From contig DDUN01000006.1 in the NCBI GenBank assembly GCA_002344825.1, positions 9,816 to 73,815 on the forward strand: DNA of 64,000 nucleotides, given 5' to 3'. Origin of the DNA: Candidatus Multiplicimicrobium inquinatum (lineage in GTDB: Bacteria > Omnitrophota > Omnitrophia > Omnitrophales > Aquincolibacteriaceae). How positions within the stretch are numbered: the first letter of the stretch is position 1; every line of letters starts with the position of its first letter. The notes below the pieces were generated by a model that was given only the letters and a program-made list of their open reading frames with translations, was not told the origin of the DNA and made no database searches. The translations under genes and the position numbers were made by a program. Positions 7,755-49,090 of this stretch are shown here, piece after piece.

Positions 7755-9437
7755 ATGACAGCAAAATTAAAAGCTCCGCCTAAGAAAAAAATCGCAAAAG
7801 CGGTTAAAAAATTGCCTTTAAAAAAGGCTGTGAAAGCGGTGGTTACCGTGTCTCCGGCGCAGCAAGCGATTGATGCGAAACTCGCGAAAGTGATTGTCCG
7901 TTTGATCAAAACGGGCATGGAACAAGGCGTGGTGACCATTGAACAGATGAAAAAACAAGTCAAAGGGGACTTGGATAATCCGGATAACGTTGAACGCGTG
8001 ATTAAGGCTCTCGCCAAAGAAAATATTCAGGTTCTTTCCGAAAAAGTAGTTGAGGCGGATAACCGCAAAGAGCGCGATGTAGAGTTGGAAGAAGAAGGCG
8101 CGGCGGATGAAGCCGAAAAAGTCCGCATGGACGACCCTGTCCGCACTTATTTGCGCCAGATGGGACAAATTCCTCTCTTAAAACGTGATGAAGAAATTGC
8201 GCTGGCGAAACGCATTGAGGATCGTGAGCAGGATTTAGCTCGCGCCATTTTTCAATGTAAGGGCGCGCGCTATGAAGTGCTCGAGCTGGCCAAAAAGATT
8301 TCTGAGGGAACCGTTCAAGTTGAATCGATCATTGATCCCGAGCAAGAGCAGGGCGAAGACGAAGCCATGCAGGAAGCCAAGATCAAGGCGATGAAAAAGA
8401 AAATGAAGTCGCTTATTCGTAAACTGCGTGCTTCACGGAAAGATTCGGATATTACCGAGCTTTTGATGAGTTTTAAACTGAGCGTTCAGATGGTGGATAA
8501 GATTCTCGCCAGTCTGCGCGCCAAATATGTTCAGCTCCGTAAAAACCGCGAAGAAATCAAGAAACTTCGTAAGAAGAGCGTCCGTGGCGCGATCGGAAAG
8601 ATCGAAGAGCGCAATAAAGAAATTTTGCATGAGCTCTCCGAGCCCGAAAAAGATTTTGTTGAACGTCTGCGTTTAATCGGAAGAAAAGAAGCTGAGCTAT
8701 CGATCGCCAAAAAAGCGCTTTGTGCCGCGAATTTGCGTTTAGTCGTGAGTATCGCAAAAAAATATACCAATCGCGGTTTATCTTTCCTGGATTTGATTCA
8801 GGAAGGAAACATTGGTTTGATGAAAGCGGTTGATAAGTTTGAATACAAACGCGGCTATAAATTTTCGACTTACGCGACGTGGTGGATTCGTCAGGCCATT
8901 ACGCGTTCGATCGCGGATCAGGCGCGTACGATTCGTATTCCGGTTCACATGATCGAAACGATCAATAAGTTTTTCCGTGCTTCCCGCCACTTAGTTCAGG
9001 AAACCGGCCGTGAGCCGACTCCCGAAGAAGTCGCGCAGTTGATGAAGATGCCGGTTGAAAAGGTAAAAGGCATTTTGAAGATCGCTCAGGAACCAATCAG
9101 TCTTCAAACCCCGATCGGCGATGACGGAGATACCACTTTCGGTGACTTCATTGAAGATAAGTCCGCTGTTTCACCGGCGAATGCCACGGCTTACAGTATG
9201 CTTAAAGAGCAGATGGACGATGTTCTGCTTTCTCTGACTGAACGTGAGGAGAAGGTTCTCCGCTTGCGTTTTGGTATCGGCGACGGATATCCGAGGACAT
9301 TGGAAGAAGTCGGACGCATTTTTAATGTGACTCGTGAGCGTGTGCGTCAGATTGAAGCGAAGGCTTTGCGCAAGCTTCGTCATCCAACTCGGTCAAGAAA
9401 GCTCAAAGGCTTTTTAGAAATCAAGATTAGCGAGTAG
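7755..9437 (+). CDS. rpoD: RNA polymerase sigma-70 factor RpoD
   Basis: Regions 1.2 through 4 are recognisable (TYLRQMG..., [56 protein letters not shown]). The gene lies directly downstream of dnaG. Confidence 0.95.
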
Positions 9438-9451
9438 CACTGTTTTTTAAA

Positions 9452-9476
9452 CCTCTGCGCTGATGCGCAACCGGCG
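9452..9476 (+). repeat. short hairpin motif, family 1 copy (CCTCTGCGC-tgat-GCGCAACCGGCG) 15 nt after the rpoD stop
   Basis: Near-identical copies occur at 23616 and 40543. Confidence 0.7.
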
Positions 9477-9501: not shown

Positions 9502-9575
<74 letters not shown>

Positions 9576-9588
9576 CTGCATTGTTTTT

Positions 9589-9612: not shown

Positions 9613-9640
9613 AAGCTTGCCCAGATTCGAAGTTTTAAAA

Positions 9641-9710
9641 AAGAGCCGTCTACGGCGTCAAAATTTCATTCCTTTGTGCGGAGTCGTTTTCACTACACCT
9701 CCGCAGTCAT
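9641..9710 (+). repeat. intergenic repeat, family 2, degenerate copy
   Basis: Carries ...cctttgtgcggagtcgttttcactacacctccgcagtc..., homologous to the copies at 15692, 29826 and 41858. Confidence 0.5.
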
Positions 9711-9815
9711 TCAAATTTTCCTTTTATTCAGGCTTTTTTGAGAAAAATGGTTTGAGATTTTTCGGATTTGAAGTGAGCCGTGACAACATCAGAATTTGAA
9801 TGAGGGAAAACATTG

Positions 9816-9905
9816 GGAGCGGCGAGTGGCTGACCCGCAGCGAACCCGAGCGTTTAGCAAGAGAGTGAGCGAAGGGTGGCGAGTCCAGATAGGTCCATTT
9901 CCTTC
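9816..9905 (+). repeat. intergenic repeat, family 3, copy A (possible small RNA)
   Basis: About 75% identical over ~90 nt to 24136..24235 (ggcgagtggc...gaagcgaaNccgagcgNttagcNagagagNgaNcgNaagg...ggtcc...tttcc). Confidence 0.5.
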
Positions 9906-14378: not shown

Positions 14379-15681
14379 CGGATTGCATCGCCGGCAGGCA
14401 AAAAATTTGGTGATCCGTAACGCGCATGTTGTGGATCCCTTTCACAAAATTAATGACGTGCTCGAGCTTTATATCAAGAACGGAAAAGTCCAGAAGTGGG
14501 GCAAGAAGGTGGATGCTCCCGCCGACGCCGATGTGTTTGACGCCAAAGGACTGTATCTTTTTCCGGGGTTCATTGATTTGCAGGTTCATTTCCGCGATCC
14601 CGGATTTGAAAACAAAGAAACGATTGAAAGCGGAGTTCAGGAAGCAATTGCGGGCGGATTCGCGGGGTGCGTGACTATGCCGAATACCAAGCCCGCGTGC
14701 GACAATGAACAGGTTGTGAAATATCAAATCGACCGCGGCGCGTTGAGCGACTTTAATATTTTTCCCGCCGGTGCTTTGACACAAGGAGTCGGAGGTCAAA
14801 AAATAGCTGAAATTTCTGAAATGAAAATTGCGGGCGCGGTGGCGGTGACGGATGGATCCAGCTGGCTGCAAGACTCCGGTGTTGCGCGCAGGGCCTATGA
14901 GTATGCGACCACTTATGATTTGGTGGTGATGTCGCAGGCCGAAGACAATCGATTGAGCGCGGCCGGAGTGATGAATGAAAGTGTGGTCTCAACCCGCTTG
15001 GGCTTACGCGGCCGTCCCGGTGCCGCTGAAGACATTGCGATTGCAAGAGATTTGGAATTGGCGCGTTTAACAGGATGTCGTCTCCATCTGATGAGTGTTT
15101 CGACCAAACGGGCGGTGGAGTATATCCGCGAAGCAAAGCAGGAAGGCATCACCGTGACCGCGCAGGTGACACCGCATCATTTGATGATGACCGAAGATGA
15201 CTTTGTGACTTATGACACCAATTTTAAAATGAGCCCGCCCTTGCGCAGCGTTGAGGACCAAAAAGCAATTTTGGAAGGGTTGAAAGACGGGACGATTGAT
15301 GTGATTGGTTCGGATCACTCGCCGCACGCGGCGGAAGAAAAAGATATGGATGTAGAAGTGGCGCCGGACGGAGTTGTGGGGTTGACTTCTTACTTTGGCG
15401 CGGTGATGACGGCTTTATATCATGGGCAGAAAATTCCTCTGATGGAGATCGTTAGAAAAATGAGTCTTCGCCCAAGTGAAATTATCGGCAAGAATAAGTT
15501 TGGAAGATTAGGCGAGGGAGAGCTTGCCAACTTTGTTTTGGCGGATTTGAATCATGAATGGGTTTTTGAGAAAAAGCATATTTTTTCAAAATCAAAAAAC
15601 TCTTGTTTCCTGGGCAGAAAATTTAAAGGCAAGGTATTTCATAATTTTGTAAACGGCTATCACTACGACTTGACCAAGTAA
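14371..15681 (+). CDS. pyrC: dihydroorotase
   Basis: Shows the metal-binding DLQVHFRDPG pattern of the amidohydrolase fold. The RBS GGAGG precedes an ATG at 14371. Confidence 0.85.
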   Translation: MSNGLHRRQAKNLVIRNAHVVDPFHKINDVLELYIKNGKVQKWGKKVDAPADADVFDAKGLYLFPGFIDLQVHFRDPGFENKETIESGVQEAIAGGFAGCVTMPNTKPACDNEQVVKYQIDRGALSDFNIFPAGALTQGVGGQKIAEISEMKIAGAVAVTDGSSWLQDSGVARRAYEYATTYDLVVMSQAEDNRLSAAGVMNESVVSTRLGLRGRPGAAEDIAIARDLELARLTGCRLHLMSVSTKRAVEYIREAKQEGITVTAQVTPHHLMMTEDDFVTYDTNFKMSPPLRSVEDQKAILEGLKDGTIDVIGSDHSPHAAEEKDMDVEVAPDGVVGLTSYFGAVMTALYHGQKIPLMEIVRKMSLRPSEIIGKNKFGRLGEGELANFVLADLNHEWVFEKKHIFSKSKNSCFLGRKFKGKVFHNFVNGYHYDLTK

Positions 15682-15691
15682 TGAAAAAGTC

Positions 15692-15778
15692 CATTTGCTG
15701 CTTTACAAGCTGCGCTTCTTTGTGCGGCGTAAGTTTTTACTACGCCTCCGCAGGCGCTTGCTTGCGCATTGCAACTGG
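15692..15778 (+). repeat. intergenic repeat, family 2 copy, just after the pyrC stop
   Basis: Carries ccatttgctgctttacaagctgcgcttctttgtgcggcgtaag-tttttac-tacgcctccgcaggcgcttgcttgcgcattgcaactgg. Confidence 0.6.
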
Positions 15779-15823
15779 ATCTTTTTCCTTCACTTGTTCT
15801 TAAAACAATTTTAGGTATTTTTT

Positions 15824-21059: not shown

Positions 21060-22012
21060 AAAAAACGGCTGCAAAAAAAGTTGATCTTACGACAAAGATT
21101 AAAAACCTGACTTTTAAAAACCCCGTGACGGTCGCTTCGGGAACCTTCGGCACCACGACCGAAATGGAATCATTTATCGATTATGATAAGCTTGGTGCGG
21201 TGATCGCGAAAACGGTCACTTTGTATGCTCGGCCAGGCAATCCGATGCCCCGCATCTGCGAAACAGCCTCCGGAATGATTAACGCCATCGGTTTGCAGAA
21301 TAAGGGACTTGATGAGTTTCTCGAAAACAAAATGCCCAAAATACGCAAACAGAAAACTCCGTGGGTGATCAGTATTGCGGCGGAAACGACGGAAGAGTTT
21401 TCCGTGATGGCGAAAAAGTTGGATGCGGTAAAAAAAGATTTTGCGATGCTGGAAGTGAATCTTTCTTGCCCGAATGTGGAAAAAGGCGGCGCCAGCTTTG
21501 TGAAAAAGCAGGAAACGATTATCGATATTATCAAAGCTATTCGTGATCAGACGGATATGGTCATGATGGCAAAGCTCTCGCCTGAACTCGGCGATGTCAT
21601 TGAGATTGCTGGCAATGCCCTGCGGCATGGCGCAGACGGACTCAGTTTGATCAATACACTTCGTGGGATGGTTGTAGATGTTTATAAACGCCGTTCGCGC
21701 ATTGCGCGCGACAGCGGTGGATTAAGCGGTCCCGCGATTAAGCCGGTGGCTTTGCGCTATGTTTATGACTGCAAGAAAGCGTTTAACTGTCCGATCATTG
21801 CGTCGGGTGGAATTCGTGACTGGAAAGACGCCGTTGAGTTTTTGATCGTTGGGGCCGATTTGTTGGCTGTCGGAACTTCTAATTTTGTGACACCAAACGC
21901 GACCATGCAAATTATTACGGGCATTGAGAGTTTTTGCCGCGAGCAAGGGATTCAGAAGTTGGATGATTTAAGAGGGACGTTTCAGTCCGCGCAATCTTTG
22001 GGGTGTAAATAG
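21056..22012 (+). CDS. pyrD: dihydroorotate dehydrogenase (class 1B) catalytic subunit
   Basis: A TIM-barrel DHOD (NPVTVASGTFG..., IIASGGI). It overlaps the pyrK stop. Confidence 0.9.
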   Translation: MKKTAAKKVDLTTKIKNLTFKNPVTVASGTFGTTTEMESFIDYDKLGAVIAKTVTLYARPGNPMPRICETASGMINAIGLQNKGLDEFLENKMPKIRKQKTPWVISIAAETTEEFSVMAKKLDAVKKDFAMLEVNLSCPNVEKGGASFVKKQETIIDIIKAIRDQTDMVMMAKLSPELGDVIEIAGNALRHGADGLSLINTLRGMVVDVYKRRSRIARDSGGLSGPAIKPVALRYVYDCKKAFNCPIIASGGIRDWKDAVEFLIVGADLLAVGTSNFVTPNATMQIITGIESFCREQGIQKLDDLRGTFQSAQSLGCK

Positions 22013-22013
22013 T

Positions 22014-22727
22014 ATGAGGGCGAGTGAAAAAATTATCTTGGCTTTAGACTTTTCTGATTTAAAGGATGTCAAAAAAACTTTAAAGCAGTTGGACGGCCAA
22101 GCTGTTTATTACAAAGTTGGTCTTGAACTGTTTATTAGCCACGGCTGGAAAGTCGTGGAGCTGGTCAAGAAAACCGGTGCGCGTGTTTTTCTGGATTTAA
22201 AACTGCATGATATTCCGAATACCGTGGCGAAGTCGGTCGCAACAGCATGCCGGCATGAAATTGATATTTTGAATGTGCACGCTTTGGGCGGTTTTGAAAT
22301 GATGCAAAGAGCCGGGGAGGCGTTTCAAGAAAATGCGGTGAATAAAAAGGCTGAACTGATTGCCGTCACCATTTTGACCAGTCATGACCAAAAGGTTTTG
22401 GATAAGGAATTACGAATTGGACAACCGATTCCATCTCAGGTTGTGCATTTAGCGAAATTAGCGGAAAAAGCCGGTTTGTCCGGTGTCGTGGCTTCACCGC
22501 TTGAAGTAAAACTGATTCGCAAAGCGGTTGAGAGAAAGTTTCGCATTGTGACACCGGGAGTTCGGCCATTAACCGCGGATTTAAATGATCAAAAACGGGT
22601 TTATACACCTGCACAGGCGATCCGCGAGGGAGCGGATTATCTCGTGATTGGCCGTCCGATTACTCAAGCAAAAGACCCAGCCAAGGCCTTTGAGATGATT
22701 GTTCAAGAAATTCAGGGAGTTCTTTAG
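22014..22727 (+). CDS. pyrF: orotidine-5'-phosphate decarboxylase
   Basis: Carries ILALDF...FLDLKLHDIPNTV...VIGRPI. Confidence 0.9.
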   Translation: MRASEKIILALDFSDLKDVKKTLKQLDGQAVYYKVGLELFISHGWKVVELVKKTGARVFLDLKLHDIPNTVAKSVATACRHEIDILNVHALGGFEMMQRAGEAFQENAVNKKAELIAVTILTSHDQKVLDKELRIGQPIPSQVVHLAKLAEKAGLSGVVASPLEVKLIRKAVERKFRIVTPGVRPLTADLNDQKRVYTPAQAIREGADYLVIGRPITQAKDPAKAFEMIVQEIQGVL

Positions 22728-22838
22728 TTCTAGTCCAAGTTTGCGTTTGATAGTTCCCGACTTCTTTTCTGGGGCTTATTTTTTCTTTGCCCTTTCTTTA
22801 TTTCCTCCTATAATACCGCCTTCGTCGAACCATTCCGT

Positions 22839-22909
22839 TGGGGGATGGTGTAATGGTAGCACAAAAGCCTCTGGAGCTTTTTGTCTAGGTTCGAATCCTA
22901 GTCCCCCAG
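22839..22909 (+). tRNA. tRNA-Gln (anticodon CTG)
   Basis: A manual fold works. The acceptor TGGGGGA pairs with TCCCCCA, the anticodon loop is CTCTGGA, and the T arm is CTAGG-TTCGAAT-CCTAG. The variable loop is short (4 nt). Confidence 0.75.
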
Positions 22910-23224
22910 TACTTGGCTTCTGAAAGAAGCTTTGAGCTGGGAGAGTTTTAAGCGAGCCGGTAACGGCAAGCGTACAAAGCCCTCAATTGAGTAGTAAGGC
23001 GGAGACAGCTTGGAAACGGGTTTAAATCTGTTAAAAAGCTGTATGAGAATCTTGCTTCGCAAGTATCCAGGTGGGTAGGCGCGAAGCAGAGAGTTCATCG
23101 GGTCTGGTATGGTTTCTCTTTCGAACCTTCCAATCGAATCGTTCTCTCGCAAAATGCAAGCCGTTGTACGGAGGCTTTACCGCCGACAAACCGCGGCTTT
23201 AACCAATGAGGTAAGATAAGTTCT

Positions 23225-23602
23225 ATGAACGCGAAGTTATATGTGGGAAATTTGTCCTGGCAAGCAACGGATGAAGACATTAAAAGTGCCTTCTCCAAAT
23301 ATGGCAATCTGGTTGAAGCCAGCGTTGTGCGTGACCGTTTTTCAGGACGTTCGAAGGGGTTCGCATTTGTTCGTTTCGAAAACAGTGAGTCAGCTGAAAA
23401 AGCGCTTGAACTCAATGGCCAAGATTTTATGGGCCGCAAGCTGATGGTTTCTGAAGCTCGCGAGCAGACTGAACGCACCGGTGGCGGTCGTGATTTCGGC
23501 GGAGACCGCGGTGGTGATCGTGGCGGACGCGGCGGCTTCGGCGGCGGTGATCGCGGCGGAGACCGTGGTGGTCGTGGCGGTTACGACGATCGTCGTTACT
23601 AA
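23225..23602 (+). CDS. RRM-type RNA-binding protein with a Gly/Arg-rich (RGG/DRGG) C-terminal tail
   Basis: RNP2 (LYVGNL) and RNP1 (KGFAFVRF) motifs are followed by GGRDFGGDRGGDRGGRGGFGGGDRGGDRGGRGG. Confidence 0.85.
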   Translation: MNAKLYVGNLSWQATDEDIKSAFSKYGNLVEASVVRDRFSGRSKGFAFVRFENSESAEKALELNGQDFMGRKLMVSEAREQTERTGGGRDFGGDRGGDRGGRGGFGGGDRGGDRGGRGGYDDRRY

Positions 23603-23615
23603 GCTGTTTTGTTTT

Positions 23616-23640
23616 GCCTCTGCGCATAGCGCAACCGGCG
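23616..23640 (+). repeat. short hairpin motif, family 1 copy (GCCTCTGCGC-ata-GCGCAACCGGCG) 14 nt after the RRM-protein stop
   Basis: Near-identical to the copies at 9452 and 40543. Confidence 0.7.
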
Positions 23641-23710
23641 AAGCAGCTCAACTTTGCTTTTACATCGCTCAATAGAAAAATTTTTTGTTGATTGACGTAT
23701 AAGAGTGATA

Positions 23711-23745
23711 TTCCGGAGCAAGGCAACTTGCTCCGGAATTTTATT
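23711..23745 (+). terminator. Rho-independent terminator (10-12 bp stem TTCCGGAGCAAG/CTTGCTCCGGAA + TTTTATT)
   Basis: A perfect inverted repeat with a GCAA loop, followed by a T-rich tract. Confidence 0.75.
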
Positions 23746-23785
23746 AGACCTGTTTATCTTTTCGCAATTTTTCAAATTGCATTAT

Positions 23786-23867
23786 GCGCACGTGGCGAAA
23801 TTGGCAGACGCACTACTTTGAGGTGGTAGCGCCGCAAGGCATGCAGGTTCAAGTCCTGCCGTGCGCA
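23786..23867 (+). tRNA. tRNA-Leu (anticodon GAG), class II with a long variable arm
   Basis: The acceptor GCGCACG pairs with CGTGCGC. The anticodon loop is TTGAGGT, the variable arm is CGCCGCAAGGCATG, and the T arm is GCAGG-TTCAAGT-CCTGC. Confidence 0.8.
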
Positions 23868-24029
23868 TTTTTGCTCCGTTCTATATAAAAAGCCTTACCC
23901 TTAAAAGCTCAGACAGTCCTCGGCCTTTGGCCTGTGGAACTCGTTTTAAGGATAAGGCTTTTTTCATAGAACTCCGCTTGGTCTCAGCCTTTTTCCTTTG
24001 GAAAAAGGCGAATGGAATTTTTGCTTGTC

Positions 24030-24056
24030 GCAAAAATGCGCACGGCAGGACTTGAA
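24030..24056 (-). repeat. perfect inverted 27-nt copy of the tRNA-Leu 3' end (T-arm, acceptor and trailer)
   Basis: gcaaaaatgcgcacggcaggacttgaa is the exact reverse complement of 23848..23874. Confidence 0.8.
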
Positions 24057-24085
24057 GGGAGCGACGACAAAATCTTTCGGCTGAA

Positions 24086-24125
24086 CAAAAACAAACCTGA
24101 CTCAATGTCAGGTTTTTGTTTTTTA
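24086..24125. terminator. bidirectional intrinsic terminator (AAACCTGAC-tcaat-GTCAGGTTT flanked by A and T runs)
   Basis: A 9-bp perfect stem with an upstream A-rich tract and a downstream TTTTGTTTTTT. Confidence 0.75.
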
Positions 24126-24135
24126 AAGTCTTTGT

Positions 24136-24235
24136 GAGAGGCGAGTGGCACTTGTGGTCGTAGACCAGACCTGAAGCGAAACCGAGCGGTTAGCGAGAGA
24201 GCGAACGCAAGGAGCCAGGTCCTTAACACTTTCCG
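24136..24235 (+). repeat. intergenic repeat, family 3, copy B
   Basis: Homologous to 9816..9905. Both copies lie 240-270 nt downstream of a tRNA gene. Confidence 0.5.
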
Positions 24236-24304
24236 AAAAAACGCGCACAGCTTCTTTCCGATGAAAGGTTTGTGGGTGACTTCTTAAACTTTTTGCCGTA
24301 AATT

Positions 24305-25720
24305 ATGCGCATGTTAGCCACTCATATTTTCAGAGAATACGACATCCGCGGATTAGCCGATACGGAATTGACCGATGATACCGCTCATAAAATCGGCCGT
24401 GCTTTCGGTTCTTATTTAGCTGAGGCAGGGAAGTCGCAAGTTGGTGTCGGCCATGACCACCGCGACAGTTCACCGCGCATCGCAAAGGCGCTTATCCACG
24501 GCTTAATGGAATCAGGTATGCGGGTTGTCATGCATGGCTGTGTTCCGACCCCTTTGGTTTACTTTGCGGTTGAAACTTACCCTCTGGACGCGGGGATTTG
24601 CGTAACCGGTTCTCATAATCCGCCTGAATTCAACGGTCTTAAAATTCAACTTTCGGGGGCTCCTTTCTATGGCGTACAAATCCAAGCTTTAAAAGACCGA
24701 ATTCTTGCCAAAAACTTTAAAGATGGCATTGGCAGCGTGAAAGAAGATTCCGCCCTGATTGAAAAATATCAGAAATATGTCTGCTCACTTTTTACCTTTA
24801 AGAAAAAGCTGAATGTGATTCTTGATACCGGTCATGGGATGGGCGGCGCGGTTTTGCCCAAATTGATTGCGGCATTAGGCCACAACGTGACGACGCTTTA
24901 TGAAAATTTAGATTCGACTTTTCCCGATCATCACCCCGATCCCTCCGAGCTGAAAAATCTGCGTGATTTGCAGAAAATAGTTTTAGCTCAAAAAGCGGAT
25001 ATTGGCATGGCCTTTGACGGCGATTCTGACCGTATTGGTGTGATTGATGAAAAAGGCGAAGTGATTTTCGGCGATCAGTTGACTTTGATTTACGCGCGCG
25101 AAATCGTTGAGCGGAAACCCGGCGCGGTGATTATCGGCGATGTAAAGTGTTCTAAGGCCGCTTTTGATTTGATGGAGAAGGCCGGCGCGAAACCTTTGAT
25201 GTGGAAAACGGGTCATTCGCTGGTGAAAGCCAAGATGAAAGAAACAGGTGCTGAGTTAGCCGGTGAAATGAGCGGGCATATTTTCTTTAAAGACCGCTGG
25301 TTCGGATTTGATGACGCAATTTACGCGGCTTGCCGCATTTTAGAAATCATGGATAAAACCGGAAAAAAAGTTTCCGAACTTTTGGCGGATTATCCCAAGA
25401 TGTTTTCAACGCCGGAGTTGCGGGTGGATTGCGCGGACAGTATCAAGTTTCGTGTTATTGAAGAAATCCGGCATCGTTTCAGTTTGATGACCATGACTTC
25501 ACCGCCGATTGGCGCTTTTAAAATTGTGGAGATCGACGGTGTGCGCGCTGAATGGGCGGACGGCTGGGGACTGGTACGTGCTTCGAATACTCAGCCGGTG
25601 CTGGTCACACGTTTTGAAGCGGTTTCAAGTTCGCGTGCACAGGCAATTCAATCCTGGATGGAAAAAGAAATTAAAGGTGTGATACAAAACATCGAAAAAG
25701 AAGCGAAGGTTAAAGGATGA
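24305..25720 (+). CDS. manB: phosphomannomutase / phosphoglucomutase
   Basis: Has the alpha-D-phosphohexomutase active-site motif (TGSHNPPEFNGLK) and a metal loop (FDGDSDR). Confidence 0.85.
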   Translation: MRMLATHIFREYDIRGLADTELTDDTAHKIGRAFGSYLAEAGKSQVGVGHDHRDSSPRIAKALIHGLMESGMRVVMHGCVPTPLVYFAVETYPLDAGICVTGSHNPPEFNGLKIQLSGAPFYGVQIQALKDRILAKNFKDGIGSVKEDSALIEKYQKYVCSLFTFKKKLNVILDTGHGMGGAVLPKLIAALGHNVTTLYENLDSTFPDHHPDPSELKNLRDLQKIVLAQKADIGMAFDGDSDRIGVIDEKGEVIFGDQLTLIYAREIVERKPGAVIIGDVKCSKAAFDLMEKAGAKPLMWKTGHSLVKAKMKETGAELAGEMSGHIFFKDRWFGFDDAIYAACRILEIMDKTGKKVSELLADYPKMFSTPELRVDCADSIKFRVIEEIRHRFSLMTMTSPPIGAFKIVEIDGVRAEWADGWGLVRASNTQPVLVTRFEAVSSSRAQAIQSWMEKEIKGVIQNIEKEAKVKG

Positions 25721-40518: not shown

Positions 40519-40542
40519 CTTTTGCTCTGAGCTGTTTTGTGA

Positions 40543-40566
40543 GCCTCTGCGCAAGGCGCAACTGGC
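40543..40566 (+). repeat. short hairpin motif, family 1 copy (GCCTCTGCGC-aag-GCGCAACTGGC) 24 nt after the rpsA stop
   Basis: Near-identical to the copies at 9452 and 23616. Confidence 0.7.
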
Positions 40567-40594
40567 AAACAGCCCAACCGCGAATGATTACACT

Positions 40595-43180: not shown

Positions 43181-46100
43181 ATGAAGACAAAAATAAGCAG
43201 ACTGCACAAGATCGCCGCAACCGCAACCGCACTGTGCGTTGCATTTACTCAGATTGCCGTTGCCGCGCCTGCTTTTTCGGTTTCCGCGCGTGAAGTGTCA
43301 TTGCCGGATACTTTACGTCTTGATCAAGCGATGCAGATCAGCGTTCCAAGCGCTGTCGCAACGGTTGATAAACTCATTCCGGGGAACGGGAAAACGATTT
43401 TTCATATTCAAACCGCGCATGGTCAGTATCAGGCCGAAAAACAGATTGAATTTTTACTTGCTCATTTGGAAAAAAACTACGGTGTTGAAACCCTTTTGAT
43501 GGAAGGTGCCTCTGAGGCGCTGAATCCTGAAATTATCAATTTTTTCCCTGAAGATCGTAAATCAACACTCGAAGTAGTTGATGCCTTTGTTCGTCATTCT
43601 GTTATTAGCGGTCCCGAGGTTTTTCTTTTAAACTCAGGTAAAACCCAAGGGCTTGGAATTGAAGATGAAGCTGTTTATGAGCAAAATTTGCAGGACTTTG
43701 TTTCTGTTGTTAACGCTCGTGATGCCGGCGGTCAATTTTTATCCAATTTAGAAATAGGAATTGAGCGTCTTGCGGCACTTTATCTTTCCAGTGATGCGCG
43801 TTCATTTCTTAAGCAAGTCGAAAGAAAAGAAACAGGGGATGTTCCGTTTGATATTTATTTGCAGCAGCTGAGATTAGCGGCTGAGAAATACGCCGGTATT
43901 AATCTGGCGGACGCGTCATGGCAGCTTTTGTGGCCGATGTTGACTCGTATTTTTACGATTGAAAAGCTGGAAAAGAAAATCGATGCGGCTGCTTTTAAAA
44001 AGCAAAAAGAAGATTTTTTAAAGGCGGTTAAGCCTTATACCTCAAAGGCGTTTGATGCCCATGACTCTCTTTACACGGAAGTCGAAAAACTTCTTAACCT
44101 CAAAGATCTAAGCGCAAGATTGCCTGACCCTGAAACGTCGGCTCTGTTTGAAGCCCTCGTGCGCGCTTTGCCGGATAATTTTAATTATGGCCGCTTTTCT
44201 TCCGTTACCGCGTTTTGCGGATTGCTGATGCTGAAAAGCCAGCTTCAAATTGAAACTTTGAGTGATGAAATTACCCGCATGGAAGATAAAATCGCGGACA
44301 GGCTAGCTGAAACTAAAAACGCAAAAGCCTTAGTCTCTGTTTTGAAAGATTATCGTTTACTGAAGAAGCTTTTTGCCCTCGAGCTTTTGCCCGCTGATTT
44401 TGACAAGCTGACGGGGTTTGTTTCAGGCGAAACTCGCGGACTGACCCCTATGGCTTCAAATGATGTTCGTCCTTCCGCGCTTGTGAAGCAGGTTCAACAG
44501 CTTAATGGTAATTCCCGCGCCAAAGAAGTTGAGTTTAAAAATGTTGCCGAGCTCGACGCCCTCTATACACTGGCGGTTCGTTTTTACGAAGGCGCACGTT
44601 TGCGTGACACGAAAATGCTTGAACGTATTGAAGAGCATCTCGATGCAACCGGGGCGGACAAGGTTGCGGTTGTGACCGGCGGATTTCACTCCGGACCCTT
44701 TGCGGAATATTTTGAAAAGCGCGGATATAACTACGCTTTGATGACGCCTAAGCTAACTACGATCGACACACAGGGTCGCCAAAATTATTTGGATGTCATG
44801 CAGATGTGGGTGGACGCACCCAAGAATGCGGCTAGTTTTAATGCGGGAAGCATTTCAGGTTCAACCATTCAGCCCAAGCCTGCAACCCCCGGCATTTTGA
44901 TGCGTCTTGCGTCAAGAGTATTGAATTCGTTTTTGTTTGGTCGTTTTCGAGATGTGTATGTCCCTCGTTTTGCAAAAGCAGCCATGATTCCCGGCGTAGC
45001 CTTGATGTCTCCCGACGCCGTTGCGCAAACTCCCGCAACTCCTCCTGCGCCTGCACCGCTAGTCGTTCCCGCGAAAATCCCAGTAGAAGCGGTTCCTGCA
45101 GGTAGCCAGACAGTTGCACGGAATATTACAACCGCCTTAAGTGCGCGTACCCCGGATTTTATTGCTGAGACTGATACGCTGACGCCCTTGCAACGAAGAG
45201 ACATCGAAAAACGGAAAGTAATTGTTTCTGACAAGATGAAAGCACTTGAAAATATTGAATTAGTTAATTGGGGAGCTCGTTTATTTGTTTCCGTTGCTGA
45301 TGTGGCTTTTAGGGATTCCGAGGATGTTGCTGTTCGAAAGAGGGCATTGGAGGTGCTGGTGGGGTTTTATCGTAAGTATGAAATGCCTGACCGAGGTGTT
45401 ACAGATCAGATTGCTCCAAGAGTGATGTCAGAGCTTAAGTTTCGCAATCAGGCTGATGTTGCCACTTTGAAAGAACCGAGAATTGCTCTTATTGATGCGA
45501 TTGTTGCGGTTACTCAGGACGCAGGGGTTCGTCAGCGTGGGCAAAGAATTTTAGATGAAGGTGCTGCTGAAAAGAAAAAAATCGCAGCTGAAGCCGCTGT
45601 GTTGCGTGCGCAACAAATTGATGCTCAGCTTGCGGTTATTGAGGATAGGCAAAAGCGTGGATATCAGAATTTATATGGTTTAATGGTTGAAGCAACTAAA
45701 GCATTAGACTTTCTAATTTCGGAAGGAATTTCAGATGCTGAAAAACAAAAGATTACACAATCTATTGCCGTGGGATTGAGTTCTCCTCAAAATTTTCCAC
45801 TTAAGCCGAGGGACTCTGATGGGGCTATGACTTCGCACAGAGGTACTTTGAGTTTAATGGCATGGACATTAGCAAAATTGCCTTCGCCAGAGGCCCTAGT
45901 CATTTTAGAGAAGTTAAAGGGAAAAACGGAAAATTTACAGCTTCAAGCAGATATCGAGCAAGTGATTCAAACTGTTAAGCGTGAACTTGCTCGCTCCGAA
46001 GCCCGTTCGACAAGCTCTGGGCAAGCGCGGCTTCAGATTGGAAAAGATTTTATTTTGAGTCAAGATACAAACGATGGCTGGACTGCGTCTCGCTATGATG

Positions 46101-49090
46101 CGGAGTTTGCACACCGCAGTTTGAATCAAGGTGACCACAATGTCACGGTAAGTTTAGTGACGCAAGGTAACTTAAGATTGGTGGAAGGCTCGTTTGAAGT
46201 ATCTTTGATGAAGGGACAGGAAGGGGCAGACAGGAAATCAATTGCCAAGATTTATTGGGATCAAGAAACAGATAAGCTGAATGTCAGCGGCCAAGGATAT
46301 CAGCTGCCTGATAACATTCGTCCGGCACTTTTCTTTAATGAAGAAGCAAACACCTTAGAAATTAGTTTTGGCAATAATTTACCCGAGGGACTTGAAAACG
46401 TAATTTTCAGAGGCTCTGATGAGTCAGATGCCATCAAGGTTGCATTTGTTCGTTCCGAAGTACGAGAGTTTAAAACACTCAATTATGTTCAGCTTCGAGA
46501 TAATGAAGTTCAATCGGGGATTCGCTCAGTTTTGACCGCAGAGTATCACTCCATCCAATTTCAATTGAATGGTGTTAACGTTGAAAGCGCGATTGAGAGA
46601 ACCTCATCGGGTAATTTCCAAAATCAAACTTCGTTGATTGCGGCGCGTGTAATTAAGATTTGGGAGGAAGTTTCAGGGAAACGGAATGACTTTGGCGGAA
46701 CAATTTATGCCGCTGTTGAAGTTGCGAAAACGGGTGGCGCGGTTACCGTTTCTATTTTTACTCCTCGCTCCGAAGCACGTGTGGATCTTGGTAGCTTTCC
46801 TCATGAAATTTCCGTGAATAGTATTAATGCTTGGGCAAGTACTTGGGCAAAGGCATCCGGGCAAAGCGACGCTTGGATTGGTGATTTTGAGATGGTCGCA
46901 AAAAATGGGGTCGATTATCCTTCGTTTAGCGGTAAGGCGAGTGTCGGTAATTTTGCTCAAACTCTTTTTAAATCAGCTCAAGCGGCGGGTGTGATTGAAG
47001 CGGAAAAAACTTTTAATACGGAAAACCTTGTTCGGCTGGGAGCTATTTTAAGACAGAATTATGAGGCGATGAGCTACGACACATTCACTCCTTCTGATAT
47101 TGAAGCGGTGCGCCCCCCGCAACCCCAGTCTACGGATGATTCTGCCCGCTCCGAACAGATCTTGGCGGCGGCAGATTACGTGCGCAATCATGTTAAGCCA
47201 CAAGAATTGCAGGTAATTATTGAAACAATACGCAAGCATGGCGAACGGGAGCTTGCTGGCTTGAAAATAAATGCCATCAATGATCCGTTGCTTGAGGCAG
47301 AGAAAGCTATCTTGGAACAAGCAGGGCTTTTATCGCAAGATCGTTTAGGGGGGGCTTGGAACAAGCGTTTGCAAGCCGGGCAATTTTTATTAGCGGTGGC
47401 TGAGGAATTGGCTCTCAAACGTTCCGAAGCGAGGAGGGATTTTGCCCTTAAATATCAGATGGGGCAATCGACCGGGAGAGTGACCGTTTACGAAATAACC
47501 AATTTTCAATTAGGTGACCCCACGTACAATAGCCTAAAAGATATTTTAGCGATGGTAGATCCAAGTGCATCAGTTGAAGCCTATAACAAGGCGCAGCTTA
47601 CAGTTAACGCGTTTACTGGAGCCGTCGCTTTGACGCTCGGTAATGCACGACTAACCGTGCACTATGTTTTTTCTGAAGATTTGTCATGGCTTAACCCAAG
47701 CACATGGGTTCAGGTTGTGCCCAAGGGCAATTTTCAGGCAGAACTGGTTATGACTTCTGCCGCTGCTGATCGCCATCTTGCTCCCAATGAATTAGTTTTG
47801 CGTCTCGTGACGGCTCGTTCCGAAGCGCGGGTATTCGAATATGTTCTTCCAGATTCTAAGGAGAATCTTTCTGTTGCTGACGCGATTAAATTAGCGTGGG
47901 GTCGTTTTGTGGAAAGTGATGCGCCTGGCGCGGATGCAACGAGTTTTCAAATAGGGTTTCGTTTTGCAGGTTCGCCGGAAGTACTCGTGGTGACGGTTCC
48001 ACGAGGTCAAGAAGCGGAAGCAATTGAATCCGTTGTTGCCAAGCAATGGGATGATGCCACTAAACGGGAAAAATTTAAATTGCCTGAACCGGTCAACGGT
48101 AAATTGCCATCGGCGAAAACGCTCGAGAGCATTTCCATTACACCGGCACCGGCTATCCGCAGCGAAAGCCGTGCGCTAACGACTGAAGAAGAACAGGTGG
48201 TTCGAGACATTCTTAAGAGTTTTACGGAAGGAATTTTAACAATCGAACAGGCTGCGGTTGTCCTTCAGCTTAATAGTTTTACCGGCGAGCAAATTCGTCA
48301 AGTTGCCGCTGAAGTGTTGGGTTCTAATCTTAAAACCAGTGAAACAGCGGATGGTGGGGCTGACCTTGATCAGCTTTTGGGATTGGTGGACAAAGCTCAA
48401 ATTGGTTTTGGAAGAGGCTTTGCCGCGTTAGATCGCGGACAATTAACCAGTACAAAAAAAGTTCGAATGAAGCCGGTTTTGATTACGGCGCTTGGATTTG
48501 TGCATCTTGTGAATAATAATCGAAGCGCGGCATTGTCTCTGATTCAGCGGATTGTGTCCTCGGGAACCAAGATTGCTTTGGCGACCGAAGGAGCTGACAA
48601 AACAGAGCTTTTTGATCAGCTCGTTGATTTACTTGTTAACCGTGAATCTGGTTTTACAGGGAGTAAGGCAGATATGAAGGGCTTGCTCCTTCAGGCTCTT
48701 GACATGCGAGCTGATGCGGATGAGTTGGCTCAGTTTGCAGATGAAAATGACGGAAAATTTTCAAAACTGGATTTGGGTATTAATAGTGGCTTATTAGCCA
48801 GCGTGAAAGGCGGTTATCCTTTTGAACTTAAAAACGGAGATAGTCCGTTAAACGGTAAGGATCTTTGGGCTGCTGCTGCTGTGGGTGCTTTGCTGCCGAC
48901 TGCTATTGCTTCGTTAGGTGATGGAGAAATTACTGAGGATGAAGCAGAAGCAGCCTTAATGACTTTCTTTAATGGCCCTCAAACCATGTTGGGATTGCGC
49001 AAAAATGCTAATGGCAGTTATGGTTTTGGACCTCTTACAGAATTGCTTCAGGCGATTGTAATTGCCCAATATATCGAAATCATGGCGTAA
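43181..49090 (+). CDS. giant (1969 aa) secreted protein of unknown function with internal repeats
   Basis: A single uninterrupted ORF. It has a signal peptide (KIAATATALCVAFTQIAVAAPA), a Pro/Ala-rich linker (AQTPATPPAPAPLVVPAKIPVEAVPAG) and five to six repeats of R-S-E-[AVS]-R each preceded by a hydrophobic strand. A promoter-like AT-rich region lies upstream and an intrinsic terminator downstream. I recognise no known domain with confidence. Confidence 0.8.
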   Translation: MKTKISRLHKIAATATALCVAFTQIAVAAPAFSVSAREVSLPDTLRLDQAMQISVPSAVATVDKLIPGNGKTIFHIQTAHGQYQAEKQIEFLLAHLEKNYGVETLLMEGASEALNPEIINFFPEDRKSTLEVVDAFVRHSVISGPEVFLLNSGKTQGLGIEDEAVYEQNLQDFVSVVNARDAGGQFLSNLEIGIERLAALYLSSDARSFLKQVERKETGDVPFDIYLQQLRLAAEKYAGINLADASWQLLWPMLTRIFTIEKLEKKIDAAAFKKQKEDFLKAVKPYTSKAFDAHDSLYTEVEKLLNLKDLSARLPDPETSALFEALVRALPDNFNYGRFSSVTAFCGLLMLKSQLQIETLSDEITRMEDKIADRLAETKNAKALVSVLKDYRLLKKLFALELLPADFDKLTGFVSGETRGLTPMASNDVRPSALVKQVQQLNGNSRAKEVEFKNVAELDALYTLAVRFYEGARLRDTKMLERIEEHLDATGADKVAVVTGGFHSGPFAEYFEKRGYNYALMTPKLTTIDTQGRQNYLDVMQMWVDAPKNAASFNAGSISGSTIQPKPATPGILMRLASRVLNSFLFGRFRDVYVPRFAKAAMIPGVALMSPDAVAQTPATPPAPAPLVVPAKIPVEAVPAGSQTVARNITTALSARTPDFIAETDTLTPLQRRDIEKRKVIVSDKMKALENIELVNWGARLFVSVADVAFRDSEDVAVRKRALEVLVGFYRKYEMPDRGVTDQIAPRVMSELKFRNQADVATLKEPRIALIDAIVAVTQDAGVRQRGQRILDEGAAEKKKIAAEAAVLRAQQIDAQLAVIEDRQKRGYQNLYGLMVEATKALDFLISEGISDAEKQKITQSIAVGLSSPQNFPLKPRDSDGAMTSHRGTLSLMAWTLAKLPSPEALVILEKLKGKTENLQLQADIEQVIQTVKRELARSEARSTSSGQARLQIGKDFILSQDTNDGWTASRYDAEFAHRSLNQGDHNVTVSLVTQGNLRLVEGSFEVSLMKGQEGADRKSIAKIYWDQETDKLNVSGQGYQLPDNIRPALFFNEEANTLEISFGNNLPEGLENVIFRGSDESDAIKVAFVRSEVREFKTLNYVQLRDNEVQSGIRSVLTAEYHSIQFQLNGVNVESAIERTSSGNFQNQTSLIAARVIKIWEEVSGKRNDFGGTIYAAVEVAKTGGAVTVSIFTPRSEARVDLGSFPHEISVNSINAWASTWAKASGQSDAWIGDFEMVAKNGVDYPSFSGKASVGNFAQTLFKSAQAAGVIEAEKTFNTENLVRLGAILRQNYEAMSYDTFTPSDIEAVRPPQPQSTDDSARSEQILAAADYVRNHVKPQELQVIIETIRKHGERELAGLKINAINDPLLEAEKAILEQAGLLSQDRLGGAWNKRLQAGQFLLAVAEELALKRSEARRDFALKYQMGQSTGRVTVYEITNFQLGDPTYNSLKDILAMVDPSASVEAYNKAQLTVNAFTGAVALTLGNARLTVHYVFSEDLSWLNPSTWVQVVPKGNFQAELVMTSAAADRHLAPNELVLRLVTARSEARVFEYVLPDSKENLSVADAIKLAWGRFVESDAPGADATSFQIGFRFAGSPEVLVVTVPRGQEAEAIESVVAKQWDDATKREKFKLPEPVNGKLPSAKTLESISITPAPAIRSESRALTTEEEQVVRDILKSFTEGILTIEQAAVVLQLNSFTGEQIRQVAAEVLGSNLKTSETADGGADLDQLLGLVDKAQIGFGRGFAALDRGQLTSTKKVRMKPVLITALGFVHLVNNNRSAALSLIQRIVSSGTKIALATEGADKTELFDQLVDLLVNRESGFTGSKADMKGLLLQALDMRADADELAQFADENDGKFSKLDLGINSGLLASVKGGYPFELKNGDSPLNGKDLWAAAAVGALLPTAIASLGDGEITEDEAEAALMTFFNGPQTMLGLRKNANGSYGFGPLTELLQAIVIAQYIEIMA

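Follow-up and report, generated by a model that had tools for sequence, protein, structure and literature searches.

In a stretch of 64,000 nucleotides (nt) from Candidatus Multiplicimicrobium inquinatum (assembly GCA_002344825.1, contig DDUN01000006.1, positions 9,816 to 73,815), referred to below as the window, the 3' end of a tRNA-Leu(GAG) gene was followed by a perfect inverted copy of itself. Comparison with relatives showed that the locus is a conserved hairpin-forming module at a rearrangement hotspot and no private scar, and that this module accumulated between tRNA-Leu and the phosphomannomutase gene pmm in one genus-level clade of the uncultured phylum Candidatus Omnitrophota. The best reading of the match between the inverted copy and the tRNA is that it has been kept either by hairpin-templated correction or by selection. 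A tentative preference, falling somewhat short of an even chance, is given to the interpretation that a long-lived, nested quasi-palindrome surrounds the tRNA-Leu(GAG) terminator and has the copy as its outer right arm, that the copy forms the core of a gene-less repeat module, and that it is kept matched to the tRNA by hairpin-templated correction. Duplicated tRNA 3' ends are a standard sign of integrated elements, in which they are expected to be direct repeats, whereas the copy described here was inverted, was conserved in a genus, and changed in step with the tRNA.

Inverted copy of the tRNA-Leu 3' end

The tRNA-Leu(GAG) gene occupied positions 23786-23867 of the plus strand (ARAGORN; Rfam RF00005, 51.4 bits); it did not encode CCA, belonged to the variant designated type D below, and had the acceptor stem GCGCACG/CGTGCGC and the T stem GCAGG/CCTGC. 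The left arm of the outer palindrome (23848-23874, plus strand) comprised the T-loop, the 3' strands of the T stem and acceptor stem, and the discriminator (23848-23867), together with the 7-nt trailer TTTTTGC, and the right arm (24030-24056) was its exact reverse complement, GCAAAAA followed by TGCGCACGGCAGGACTTGAA. A repeat finder reported the two 27-nt arms as an inverted pair (I1) with 100% complementarity and a gap of 155 nt. The 20-nt tRNA part of the arm occurred twice in 64 kb, once on each strand, with an expectation of 0 from shuffles (n=100), and the inverted copy had a local-alignment score of 27 against a shuffle maximum of 13 (n=300). Orthologues of the right arm were present in the related loci L005, L009, L109/L110, L095, and L091.

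A first-pass annotation of this DNA had proposed much of the same anatomy. The 27-nt inverted duplicate was borne out by the repeat finder, the shuffles, and the alignment, and the long hairpin that had been postulated stood as a nested palindrome beginning inside the tRNA: the RNA fold of 23848-24056 had an energy of -105.1 kcal/mol on the plus strand (z = -12.5) and -111.6 kcal/mol on the minus strand, and the DNA fold an energy of -68 kcal/mol (z = -13). The inner inverted pair described there exists, with 29-nt arms that are 90% complementary, but its second range, given as 23951-23980, was off by about 9 nt, the correct pair being 23878-23906 and 23944-23972. The extra stretch on the right side, put at about 55 nt, measured 57 nt (23973-24029) and held a further 10-bp hairpin at 23987-24009. 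A bidirectional intrinsic terminator had been placed beyond the right arm, and a terminator hairpin was indeed called on both strands at 24084-24124 (stem 24093-24115, CCTGACTCAATGTCAGG; inverted pair I3); this downstream hairpin was kept in L003, L008, L009, L095, and L096. An Rfam scan of positions 22000-25000 at E <= 1 returned only two tRNAs and one sub-threshold minus-strand match on the tRNA.

Chance, or a chimera of the assembly, is a practically negligible explanation for the match. Apart from the general fact that some assemblies hold inverted chimeras, nothing speaks for it; it was refuted by the shuffles, none of which (100-300) attained the match, by the identity of the sequence in five independent assemblies, and by diverged orthologues in other species. 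The possibility of an assembly artefact, raised in the first-pass annotation, likewise failed, the identical sequence being present in four other independent assemblies and a fifth having only 2 substitutions. A retroelement primer-binding site was also rejected, as beyond the tRNA end the copy is complementary to the genomic trailer (GCAAAAA) and lacks the TGG that would pair with CCA.

Downstream of the right arm lay the box extension GGGAGCGACGACAAAATCTTTCGGCTGAAC (24057-24092, plus strand), whose first bases, GGGAG, were shared family-wide and which had a homologous box at the tRNA-Met locus (9763-9790). In an anchored comparison, identity after the right arm was 0.83 over the first 6 nt and 0.45 over the next 40 nt. 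Another possible origin of the copy is a second tRNA-Leu gene, convergent with the first and served by the same terminator, of which the 5' two-thirds were later lost. The orientation, the central terminator, and the inclusion of the trailer would all be consistent with such a relic, but in five lineages, the sequence past the arm bore no likeness to the remainder of an inverted tRNA-Leu (z -0.3 to 0.9), the boundary was sharp, with perfect identity giving way to none, and a neutral relic would not follow later tRNA changes; this origin is very improbable.

Five nt 5' of the tRNA-Leu gene, a perfect palindrome, GCAATTTTTCAAATTGC, was found at 23764-23780. It was kept in most close relatives, L106 having a different palindrome at that position and L111 unrelated sequence.

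Conservation in related genomes

The flanks of tRNA-Leu were compared in about a dozen distinct lineages. The genus was defined as a tight group of PMM homologues with 80-98% identity, the next homologues having <=61%, and the relatives of PMM and of the RRM protein encoded upstream of the tRNA were assigned to Candidatus Omnitrophota. All genus loci with a testable downstream flank of tRNA-Leu had a statistically supported inverted copy. The palindrome was identical in L001 (JGI 3300013502), L002 (GCA_035436425.1), L004 (SRR1506983), and L006 (JGI 3300006417) and differed by 2 substitutions in L091 (ERZ761602). Near-perfect copies were found in the window and L091 (27/27), L005 (19/20), L009 (18/20), and L109/L110 (19/20 plus 2 trailer bases), and L095 had a perfect copy, its own tRNA being off the contig. 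Degenerate copies occurred in L003, L008, L096, and L097, where a long hairpin of another type (X) abuts the tRNA, and in L111-L113 the copy was cut by a deletion to TGCG. Scores for the inverted copy were 27 in the window, 20 in L005, 18 plus a distal 14 in L009, 15 in L096, 13 in L003, and 11 in L008, with shuffle maxima of 12-13. Mean pairwise identity was 0.88 for the arm versus 0.36 and 0.45 for the 40-nt flanks upstream and downstream, respectively. In a metagenome scan for the arm followed by the GGGAG box, L091 was the one true relative among the matches; the other four arose by chance, as expected from the length of the pattern.

In the simplest units, those of L005 (2126-2219) and L109 (684-770), a spacer of 13-14 nt separated the tRNA 3' end from a canonical terminator hairpin with its T-run, and 6-13 nt lay between this terminator and the inverted 3' end, which was followed by GGGAG; the spacers were nearly symmetric about the central terminator. 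On this minimal layout, the palindrome is therefore centred on the tRNA's own terminator. In the more distant Omnitrophota L010, L011, L013, and L037, tRNA-Leu lay only ~15-100 nt upstream of pmm, and where genus members retained the order tRNA-Leu-pmm, the two genes were separated by 250-600 nt of non-coding repeats, in some lineages together with small open reading frames (ORFs). The fifth distant lineage, L012, had just a short GGACTTGAA motif and a small trailer hairpin, which pairs the last 5 nt of the tRNA and the trailer with downstream sequence (GAAAAAGTACGA).

These comparisons altered the earlier interpretation in part. Its hairpin, its hotspot, and the involvement of a terminator remained; the uniqueness of the copy, the simplicity of its interior, and its isolation did not, the inverted copy being one box of a larger repeated unit that also follows tRNA-Met in the window and is tandem in relatives. 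A one-off recombination scar no longer describes the copy, which was conserved with variation in a genus-level clade and tracked the tRNA variant. The first-pass annotation had added that the same arrangement, if unchanged across distant relatives, would argue for a functional terminator rather than a mobile-element scar; it was conserved within the genus but missing in four of the five more distant Omnitrophota examined.

Co-variation of tRNA and arm

At least two types of tRNA-Leu were present in the genus. The ancestral type A, with the 3' end TTCAAGTCCTCTCGCTCGCA, was found in distant Omnitrophota, L096, and L109/L110, and the derived type D, with the 3' end TTCAAGTCCTGCCGTGCGCA, in the window and in the majority of its close relatives. 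Four positions distinguish the two types, and the arms differed at the four complementary ones: type D tRNAs were accompanied by type D arms in the window and L091, L005, and L009, and the type A tRNA by a type A arm in L109/L110, and the arm of L095 was perfectly of type A. In the four distinct tRNA/arm pairs, 79 of 80 cells were standard pairs, two pairs having changed on both sides and two by way of U.G. At the diagnostic positions, the arms read AGAG (L095), AGGG (L109), CGGC (L005 and L009), and CAGC (window). Because tRNA and arm are linked, the change from A to D may represent one evolutionary transition, so that maintenance or re-templating is demonstrated at least once and not in many independent events. 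A third tRNA-Leu(GAG) variant, with the 3' end TTCAAGTCCTGTCACGCGCA, was found in L114 (SRR14234030; 1244-1387), where it preceded a simple hairpin and the first part of a hairpin like that in the centre of the window palindrome (W, described below), the contig ending before any right arm. If complementarity is maintained for this variant too, its right arm would read TGCGCGTGACAGGACTTGAA.

Pairing preserved through substitutions would also be expected of a function at the RNA level, a rather improbable role for the arm. A read-through transcript, or a separate RNA with the right arm in its 5' part and its end at the 24093-24125 terminator, would carry the arm, which would pair with the 3' half and trailer of pre-tRNA-Leu, giving an RNase III-type duplex or a titrated or trapped precursor. 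Two U.G intermediates in the co-variation can pair in the plus-strand sense only, the complementarity reaches into the trailer and so concerns the precursor rather than the mature CCA end, the minimum free energy fold of a 23786-24130 transcript swaps the acceptor and T arms for the 27-bp stem, and a discrete ~95-nt RNA is conceivable in the window, where a terminator follows the arm. However, co-transcription should be rare, since all well-preserved units had an intrinsic terminator between tRNA and arm; the wobble pattern, with three substitutions only, was not statistically significant; there was no Rfam match and no recognisable promoter; the downstream hairpin had no T-run in L009 and in unit 2 of L003; and the arm was deleted in L111-L113 and decayed in X-type loci. 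The hairpins, moreover, had no strand bias: a strand-specific wobble test of the nested hairpins gave none, and their stability was similar on both strands. Since all hairpins fold equally on both strands, a DNA palindrome fits better than a strand-specific RNA.

Composite interior of the palindrome

The interior of the window palindrome, for which the first-pass annotation had suggested a presence/absence comparison as a single 150-bp block, proved composite: a 93-nt hairpin (W; 23879-23971) was inserted in an older spacer of ~57 nt, and relatives had a plain terminator there. W consisted of the inner inverted pair (I2), with its 29-nt, 90% complementary arms, and was flanked by copies of CTCCG at 23874-23878 and 23972-23976; a paralogous site in L095 (133-147, GTCGCTCCGCTTGGG) had a single CTCCG. 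Elements at the W position with the same CTCCG flanks were present in L009 and L112/L113, and the W orthologues of L009 and L111 had wholly different stems in which complementarity was retained. W folded with -39 kcal/mol on the plus strand and -45 kcal/mol on the minus strand, and its stem, having a left-hand A-run and a right-hand T-run, is terminator-like both ways. Inverted repeats, a target-site duplication, and an empty (paralogous) site are features of miniature inverted-repeat transposable elements (MITEs); dispersed copies were not seen, W being single in the 64-kb window that was searched. W thus behaves, as far as its sequence goes, like a MITE-type insertion into an older centre. 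Removal of W would leave 57 nt between the arms, with the small 10-bp hairpin GCCTTTTTCC-TTT-GGAAAAAGGC (23987-24009; inverted pair I10) inside them; this small hairpin belongs to the older palindrome centre and has a counterpart with compensatory changes in L095 (152-175, GCCTTTATGC/GCATAAAGGC).

In other lineages, the centre was replaced by the X-type hairpin, which was also found in the window after tRNA-Met (9636-9752) and at the intergenic site 15681-15800. The latter copy, with an energy of about -44 kcal/mol on either strand, lay between an amidohydrolase-family gene and the next ORF, with no tRNA there. Its presence at a non-tRNA site indicates that the X hairpin is a dispersed palindromic element in its own right.

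The shape of the arms recalls integration sites. Among the islands and phages that integrate into tRNA genes, there is reportedly a T-loop sublocation class, attributed to Williams (2002), of attL/attR identity blocks. The block described here likewise begins with the T-loop's first base, spans the 3' end, and reaches into the trailer (by 7 nt in the window and 2 nt in L109), and the locus is similar in being a hotspot with tandem units, occasional cargo ORFs, and some direct partial copies of the tRNA 3' end. It differs in that the well-preserved copy is inverted and lies 57-155 nt away, the units are gene-less, and there is no integrase in 64 kb. The absence of an integrase nearby, remarked on in the first-pass annotation, held for the entire window: a Pfam scan of its 48 ORFs found no integrase, transposase, RAYT, or Y1 transposase domain.

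A rather unlikely alternative is that the arms act as inverted recombination sites of a tyrosine recombinase that is specific for tRNA-Leu and whose gene lies elsewhere in the genome. Inversion of such a cassette would swap the inner halves of the arms, so that both would be under tRNA selection, and in the minimal unit it would also flip a one-directional terminator between the tRNA promoter and the glycan genes pmm-manC-uppP. The window has the 27-bp perfect inverted repeats around 155 bp that an invertible switch calls for; the arms, which extend from the T-loop to a point 2-7 nt downstream of the gene, have the form of a T-loop-class attachment block; a perfect repeat would restore an intact tRNA after inversion; and the central terminators of L005 and L109 have a T-run on one side only. 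The co-variation would also be explained, together with the L109 arm variant, which would give a benign G-C for G.U in the T stem. A plasmid tyrosine integrase of Thermococcales was shown to invert DNA between inverted tRNA-Leu sequences in vitro (PMC5495485). The resemblance to that system lies in inverted tRNA-Leu sequences as potential substrates of a tyrosine recombinase; in Thermococcales, whole tRNA genes lie far apart in archaeal chromosomes and the plasmid integrase is identified, whereas here a fragment of 20-27 nt adjoins the gene and one orientation was seen. That single orientation was found in all ten assemblies with an asymmetric centre (the window, L001, L002, L004, L006, L091, L009, and L111-L113), and there was no recombinase in 64 kb. 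A sigma-70 scan found no promoter-like site in the segment, although the promoter rules of the phylum may differ, and inspection by eye for sigma-70 and sigma-54 promoters near the right arm gave nothing convincing. The central hairpin of the window, having both an A-run and a T-run, would change little on flipping, and the L005 or L009 arm, if swapped in, would put an A.C mismatch into the acceptor stem. If such a cassette does exist, either arm could serve as the tRNA 3' end, and read-through into the surface-glycan genes would be phase-variable.

Larger repeat units and tandem arrays

After the right arm, the unit had four parts: GGGAG with a variable extension; the hairpin CTGACTNAATGTCAG, which is the terminator in the window; a box 2 of type A or B; and a tail that ends in CCAAGTCC and is similar, in direct orientation, to the T arm. 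Box 2 of the window (type A; 24131-24222, plus strand) was 82% identical, in its part 24168-24212, to 9832-9875, and copies were found in L003, L008, L091, and L095. Its end, GCAAGGAGCCAGGTCC (24207-24222), had a weak direct likeness to the variable arm and T arm of the tRNA. Two other accounts of box 2 were rejected: as a structured RNA, it had a consensus fold of -14 kcal/mol with a covariation term of ~0, and neither box 2 nor the extension had any similarity, past the arm, to the rest of an inverted or direct tRNA-Leu body. Units were tandem in relatives, with two in L003 and three in L095.

A second, degenerate inverted copy of the trailer and acceptor strand, AAAAACGCGCACAGC, was located at 24237-24251 of the window (plus strand; score 11, p ~0.06). 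Its orthologue in L009 (2503-2522) had a score of 14 (p < 0.003) and the same G-to-A change, and the sequence that follows the window copy, TTCTTTCCGATGAA, resembles the extension ATCTTTCGGCTGAA. The copy is apparently a remnant of an older unit beside pmm. Along this array of the window, motifs like the T arm thus alternated in orientation (plus, minus, plus, minus).

A paralogous unit followed the tRNA-Met gene (9502-9576) at 9636-9897 of the plus strand. It consisted of the X hairpin (9636-9752), a sequence like box 1, CGGATTTGAAGTGAGCC (9763-9779), a box 2 (9815-9879), and the tail CGAGTCCAGATAGGTCCA (9880-9897). The tail resembles the tRNA-Met 3' end in direct orientation (p ~0.03), and box 1 there had no match to tRNA-Met.

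According to the first-pass annotation, tRNA 3' duplicates that mark integration are direct, and the one here was inverted. The main copy is inverted, as stated, but weak direct repeats of the tRNA 3' end terminate units in two relatives. Significant direct copies of the tRNA-Leu 3' end were found only in L008 (12 nt exact, p = 0.013, at a position matching the end of box 2 in the window) and L012 (17 nt, p < 0.003); the best direct match in the window had a score of 8 (p = 0.65).

The units themselves contained no ORF. Small ORFs were located between the arrays and pmm in L095 (397-1510), L096 (599-1039), and L109 (973-1536); those of L095 and L096 had no Pfam or PHROG family, some being membrane-like, and the ORF of L109 had a bPH_2 domain. 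In a comparison of these cargo ORFs with PHROG, three had no match, and the bPH_2 ORF matched just a membrane-flanked-domain family.

Arrays of this kind might arise if two inverted copies of the tRNA 3' end anneal into a folded single-stranded attachment site, as in the CTX phage at dif; integration would be irreversible, and units would pile up and decay, the newest lying by the tRNA. The chance that this is so is slight. The layout corresponds to that of integrated CTX, with a hybrid site, a spacer of 57-155 nt, an inverted site, and no recombinase of its own (PMC3089051). The 27-nt perfect arms can anneal, given the energy and z score of the DNA fold; the best-preserved copy lay beside the tRNA and degenerate ones further off in the window, L003, L009, and L109; units ended with direct partial T-arm copies (CCAAGTCC; 12 nt in L008); and small cargo ORFs stood beside the arrays in L095, L096, and L109. 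In the CTX attP(+) forked hairpin and in the IMEX group (PMC3089051), there are likewise two inverted copies of the host target (~90 nt apart), no own recombinase, irreversible integration with arrays, and an inverted site by one junction. The present locus differs from them in having a tRNA 3' end and not dif as its target, no phage or replicon genes, no free form found, and a stem without the full T arm. The right arm stops at the T-loop, so that the 5' half of the T arm, needed by an integrase crossing over in the T-loop, would be missing from the folded stem. Viral scans for both tRNA 3' ends gave no matches other than whole phage tRNA genes and a single prophage border, a viral scan for the box-2 pattern gave none, blastn of the unit against plasmids and phages gave none either, and the cargo ORFs had no informative phage-family matches. 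X-type units with only degenerate arms, and the weakness of the direct repeats in the window, also speak against a folded site.

Paired inverted REP sequences, the REPINs and BIMEs, are said to form mosaic arrays in alternating orientation (Bertels and Rainey reportedly described them in 2011). The units resemble them in that two inverted sequences of ~25 nt and a spacer evolve as one hairpin and in that the arrays are modular and alternating. REPINs, however, have tens to hundreds of copies of the same arm and a RAYT transposase, whereas here the arm is the end of a single-copy tRNA, no RAYT was present in the window, and the arm sequence was found only at the tRNA and its partner in the 64 kb.

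Origin and maintenance of the palindrome

Hairpin-based processes yield inverted copies around a central terminator, and three of them fit the locus: fold-back copying, a recombination site (an invertible cassette or a folded attachment site), and an RNA duplex with pre-tRNA-Leu. Under the tentatively preferred interpretation, the terminator hairpin would nucleate fold-back (template-switch) copying of the sequence 5' of itself, and this copying would extend the palindrome into the tRNA. The same hairpin-templated correction would then re-match the right arm to the current tRNA sequence, its direction being set by selection acting only on the tRNA arm. In the window, the 93-nt MITE-like hairpin later entered the centre, duplicating CTCCG, and an older degenerate unit lies further downstream. 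The region as a whole may act as a stack of terminators or insulators between the strong tRNA promoter and the pmm-manC-uppP operon and, as a fragile site, may draw hairpin-seeking repeats, unit duplication or accretion, deletions, and lateral exchange. Fold-back copying is favoured because the hairpins are symmetric on both strands, a terminator separates tRNA and arm, no enzyme, free element, or flipped orientation was found, and L012 has a hairpin that could be the seed.

Template switching is a known process by which quasipalindromes become more perfect, as in the reporters of the Lovett laboratory (PMC7202029). The likeness to these cases is that an imperfect inverted repeat is made and kept perfect by copying from arm to arm, which would account for perfect identity that includes the unselected trailer and for the tracking of the tRNA. 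If correction of this type does operate here, the locus would be a natural instance of quasipalindrome homogenisation over evolutionary time, anchored on an essential gene.

Several observations weigh against correction by fold-back copying. Documented template switching involves short loops and laboratory mutations, whereas the arms here are 57-155 nt apart and match over species-level divergence. The left boundary of the repeat coincides with the T-loop's first base, and its other end lies 2-7 nt outside the gene, which is the classic shape of an integrase identity block and is not predicted by the fold-back model. The graded series of arms (AGAG, AGGG, CGGC, and CAGC) suggests stepwise evolution under pairing or tRNA-like selection rather than wholesale re-templating, and the L109 arm carries a change missing from its tRNA. 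In addition, the other two tRNA genes of the window had no inverted copies of their own 3' ends when alignments were compared with shuffles, so the copy is no general mutational by-product of terminators.

It is conceivable, if unlikely, that the right arm is a selected functional partner of the tRNA, either as the end of an invertible terminator cassette or as the folded attachment site of new gene-less miniature elements targeting the T-loop of tRNA-Leu. A site of recombination or inversion would be a new means by which a switch, or miniature mobile units, are coupled to a tRNA gene. No described family was found to fit, and the copy is best filed among the repeats associated with tRNA 3' ends, as an inverted, co-evolving partner in a gene-less, accreting module.

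Rearrangement at the tRNA-Leu/pmm junction

The gene order around the palindrome was carB, pyrK, pyrD, pyrF, tRNA-Gln, a gene for a small RRM/RGG RNA-binding protein, tRNA-Leu, pmm, manC, and uppP, and the ORFs flanking tRNA-Leu were ordinary housekeeping genes. From 23786 to ~24102, the window and L091 differed by 2 substitutions only, both inside the 155-nt interior; elsewhere, their identity was 87% in the pmm coding sequence, 78-89% in the downstream boxes, and 52% in the spacer between the RRM gene and the tRNA, which was mostly unalignable. L008, with a PMM 95% identical to that of the window, had an X-type centre instead, L104 had half an X hairpin and box 1 beside a different upstream gene, and L105 had no unit. 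The mosaic of the window and L091, together with the differences in L008, L104, and L105, implies that the block has been exchanged, rearranged, and lost faster than the neighbouring housekeeping genes diverge. The proposal of a recombination or insertion hotspot in the first-pass annotation is thus supported by the comparison of relatives. Several contigs ended inside the arrays. Assemblies tend to break at such hotspots, and island finders that look only for direct tRNA fragments would miss them.

Rearrangements were also seen outside the genus. In L011 (~1750-2277), a 5' fragment of tRNA-Leu and a small GIY-YIG-like ORF preceded the intact tRNA-Leu, and in L012 (1-501), the tRNA 3' end and trailer (~65-70 nt) were directly duplicated ~135 nt further on, with a partial tRNA-Leu fragment upstream. 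By these two rearrangements, the tRNA-Leu/pmm junction is a hotspot across the phylum. In the IMG/VR contig L098, the complement of 1074-1157 contained a tRNA-Leu(GAG) with the ancestral 3' end, and a small helix-turn-helix/excisionase-like ORF lay ~135 nt downstream; in its predicted features, the locus looks like the border of a prophage located at this tRNA species in a different organism. Two contigs of GCA_964562525.1, L008 and L094, each had a pmm (95% and 96% identical to that of the window) with different upstream arrays, and this bin probably mixes two strains.

Other features of the window

The spacer between tRNA-Gln and the RRM gene (22910-23224, 315 nt) was 99.4% identical to that of L091, compared with 96.6% for the RRM coding sequence and 87% for pmm; it had no Rfam match and is possibly a conserved 5' leader of the gene for the RNA-binding protein. 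A YqaJ/RecE-like recombination exonuclease was encoded at 1669-2271 (Pfam 2e-30, PHROG 4e-47), preceded by a 240-amino-acid (aa) ORF without a family match; the ORFs of this region (966-2271) could be a phage-type recombination pair amid housekeeping genes. A 1969-aa ORF at 43181-49090 had no Pfam match at E <= 1e-5. The plus strand held 44 of the 48 long ORFs and all three tRNAs of the window. A REP-like repeat of ~45 nt (GCTGTTTTG..CCTCTGCGCA.AGCGCAAC.GGC..) was found at 9440-9476, 23603-23652, and 40531-40578, in each case directly 3' of a stop codon, namely those of a 560-aa ORF (ending at 9437), the RRM protein, and a 514-aa ORF (ending at 40518), respectively.

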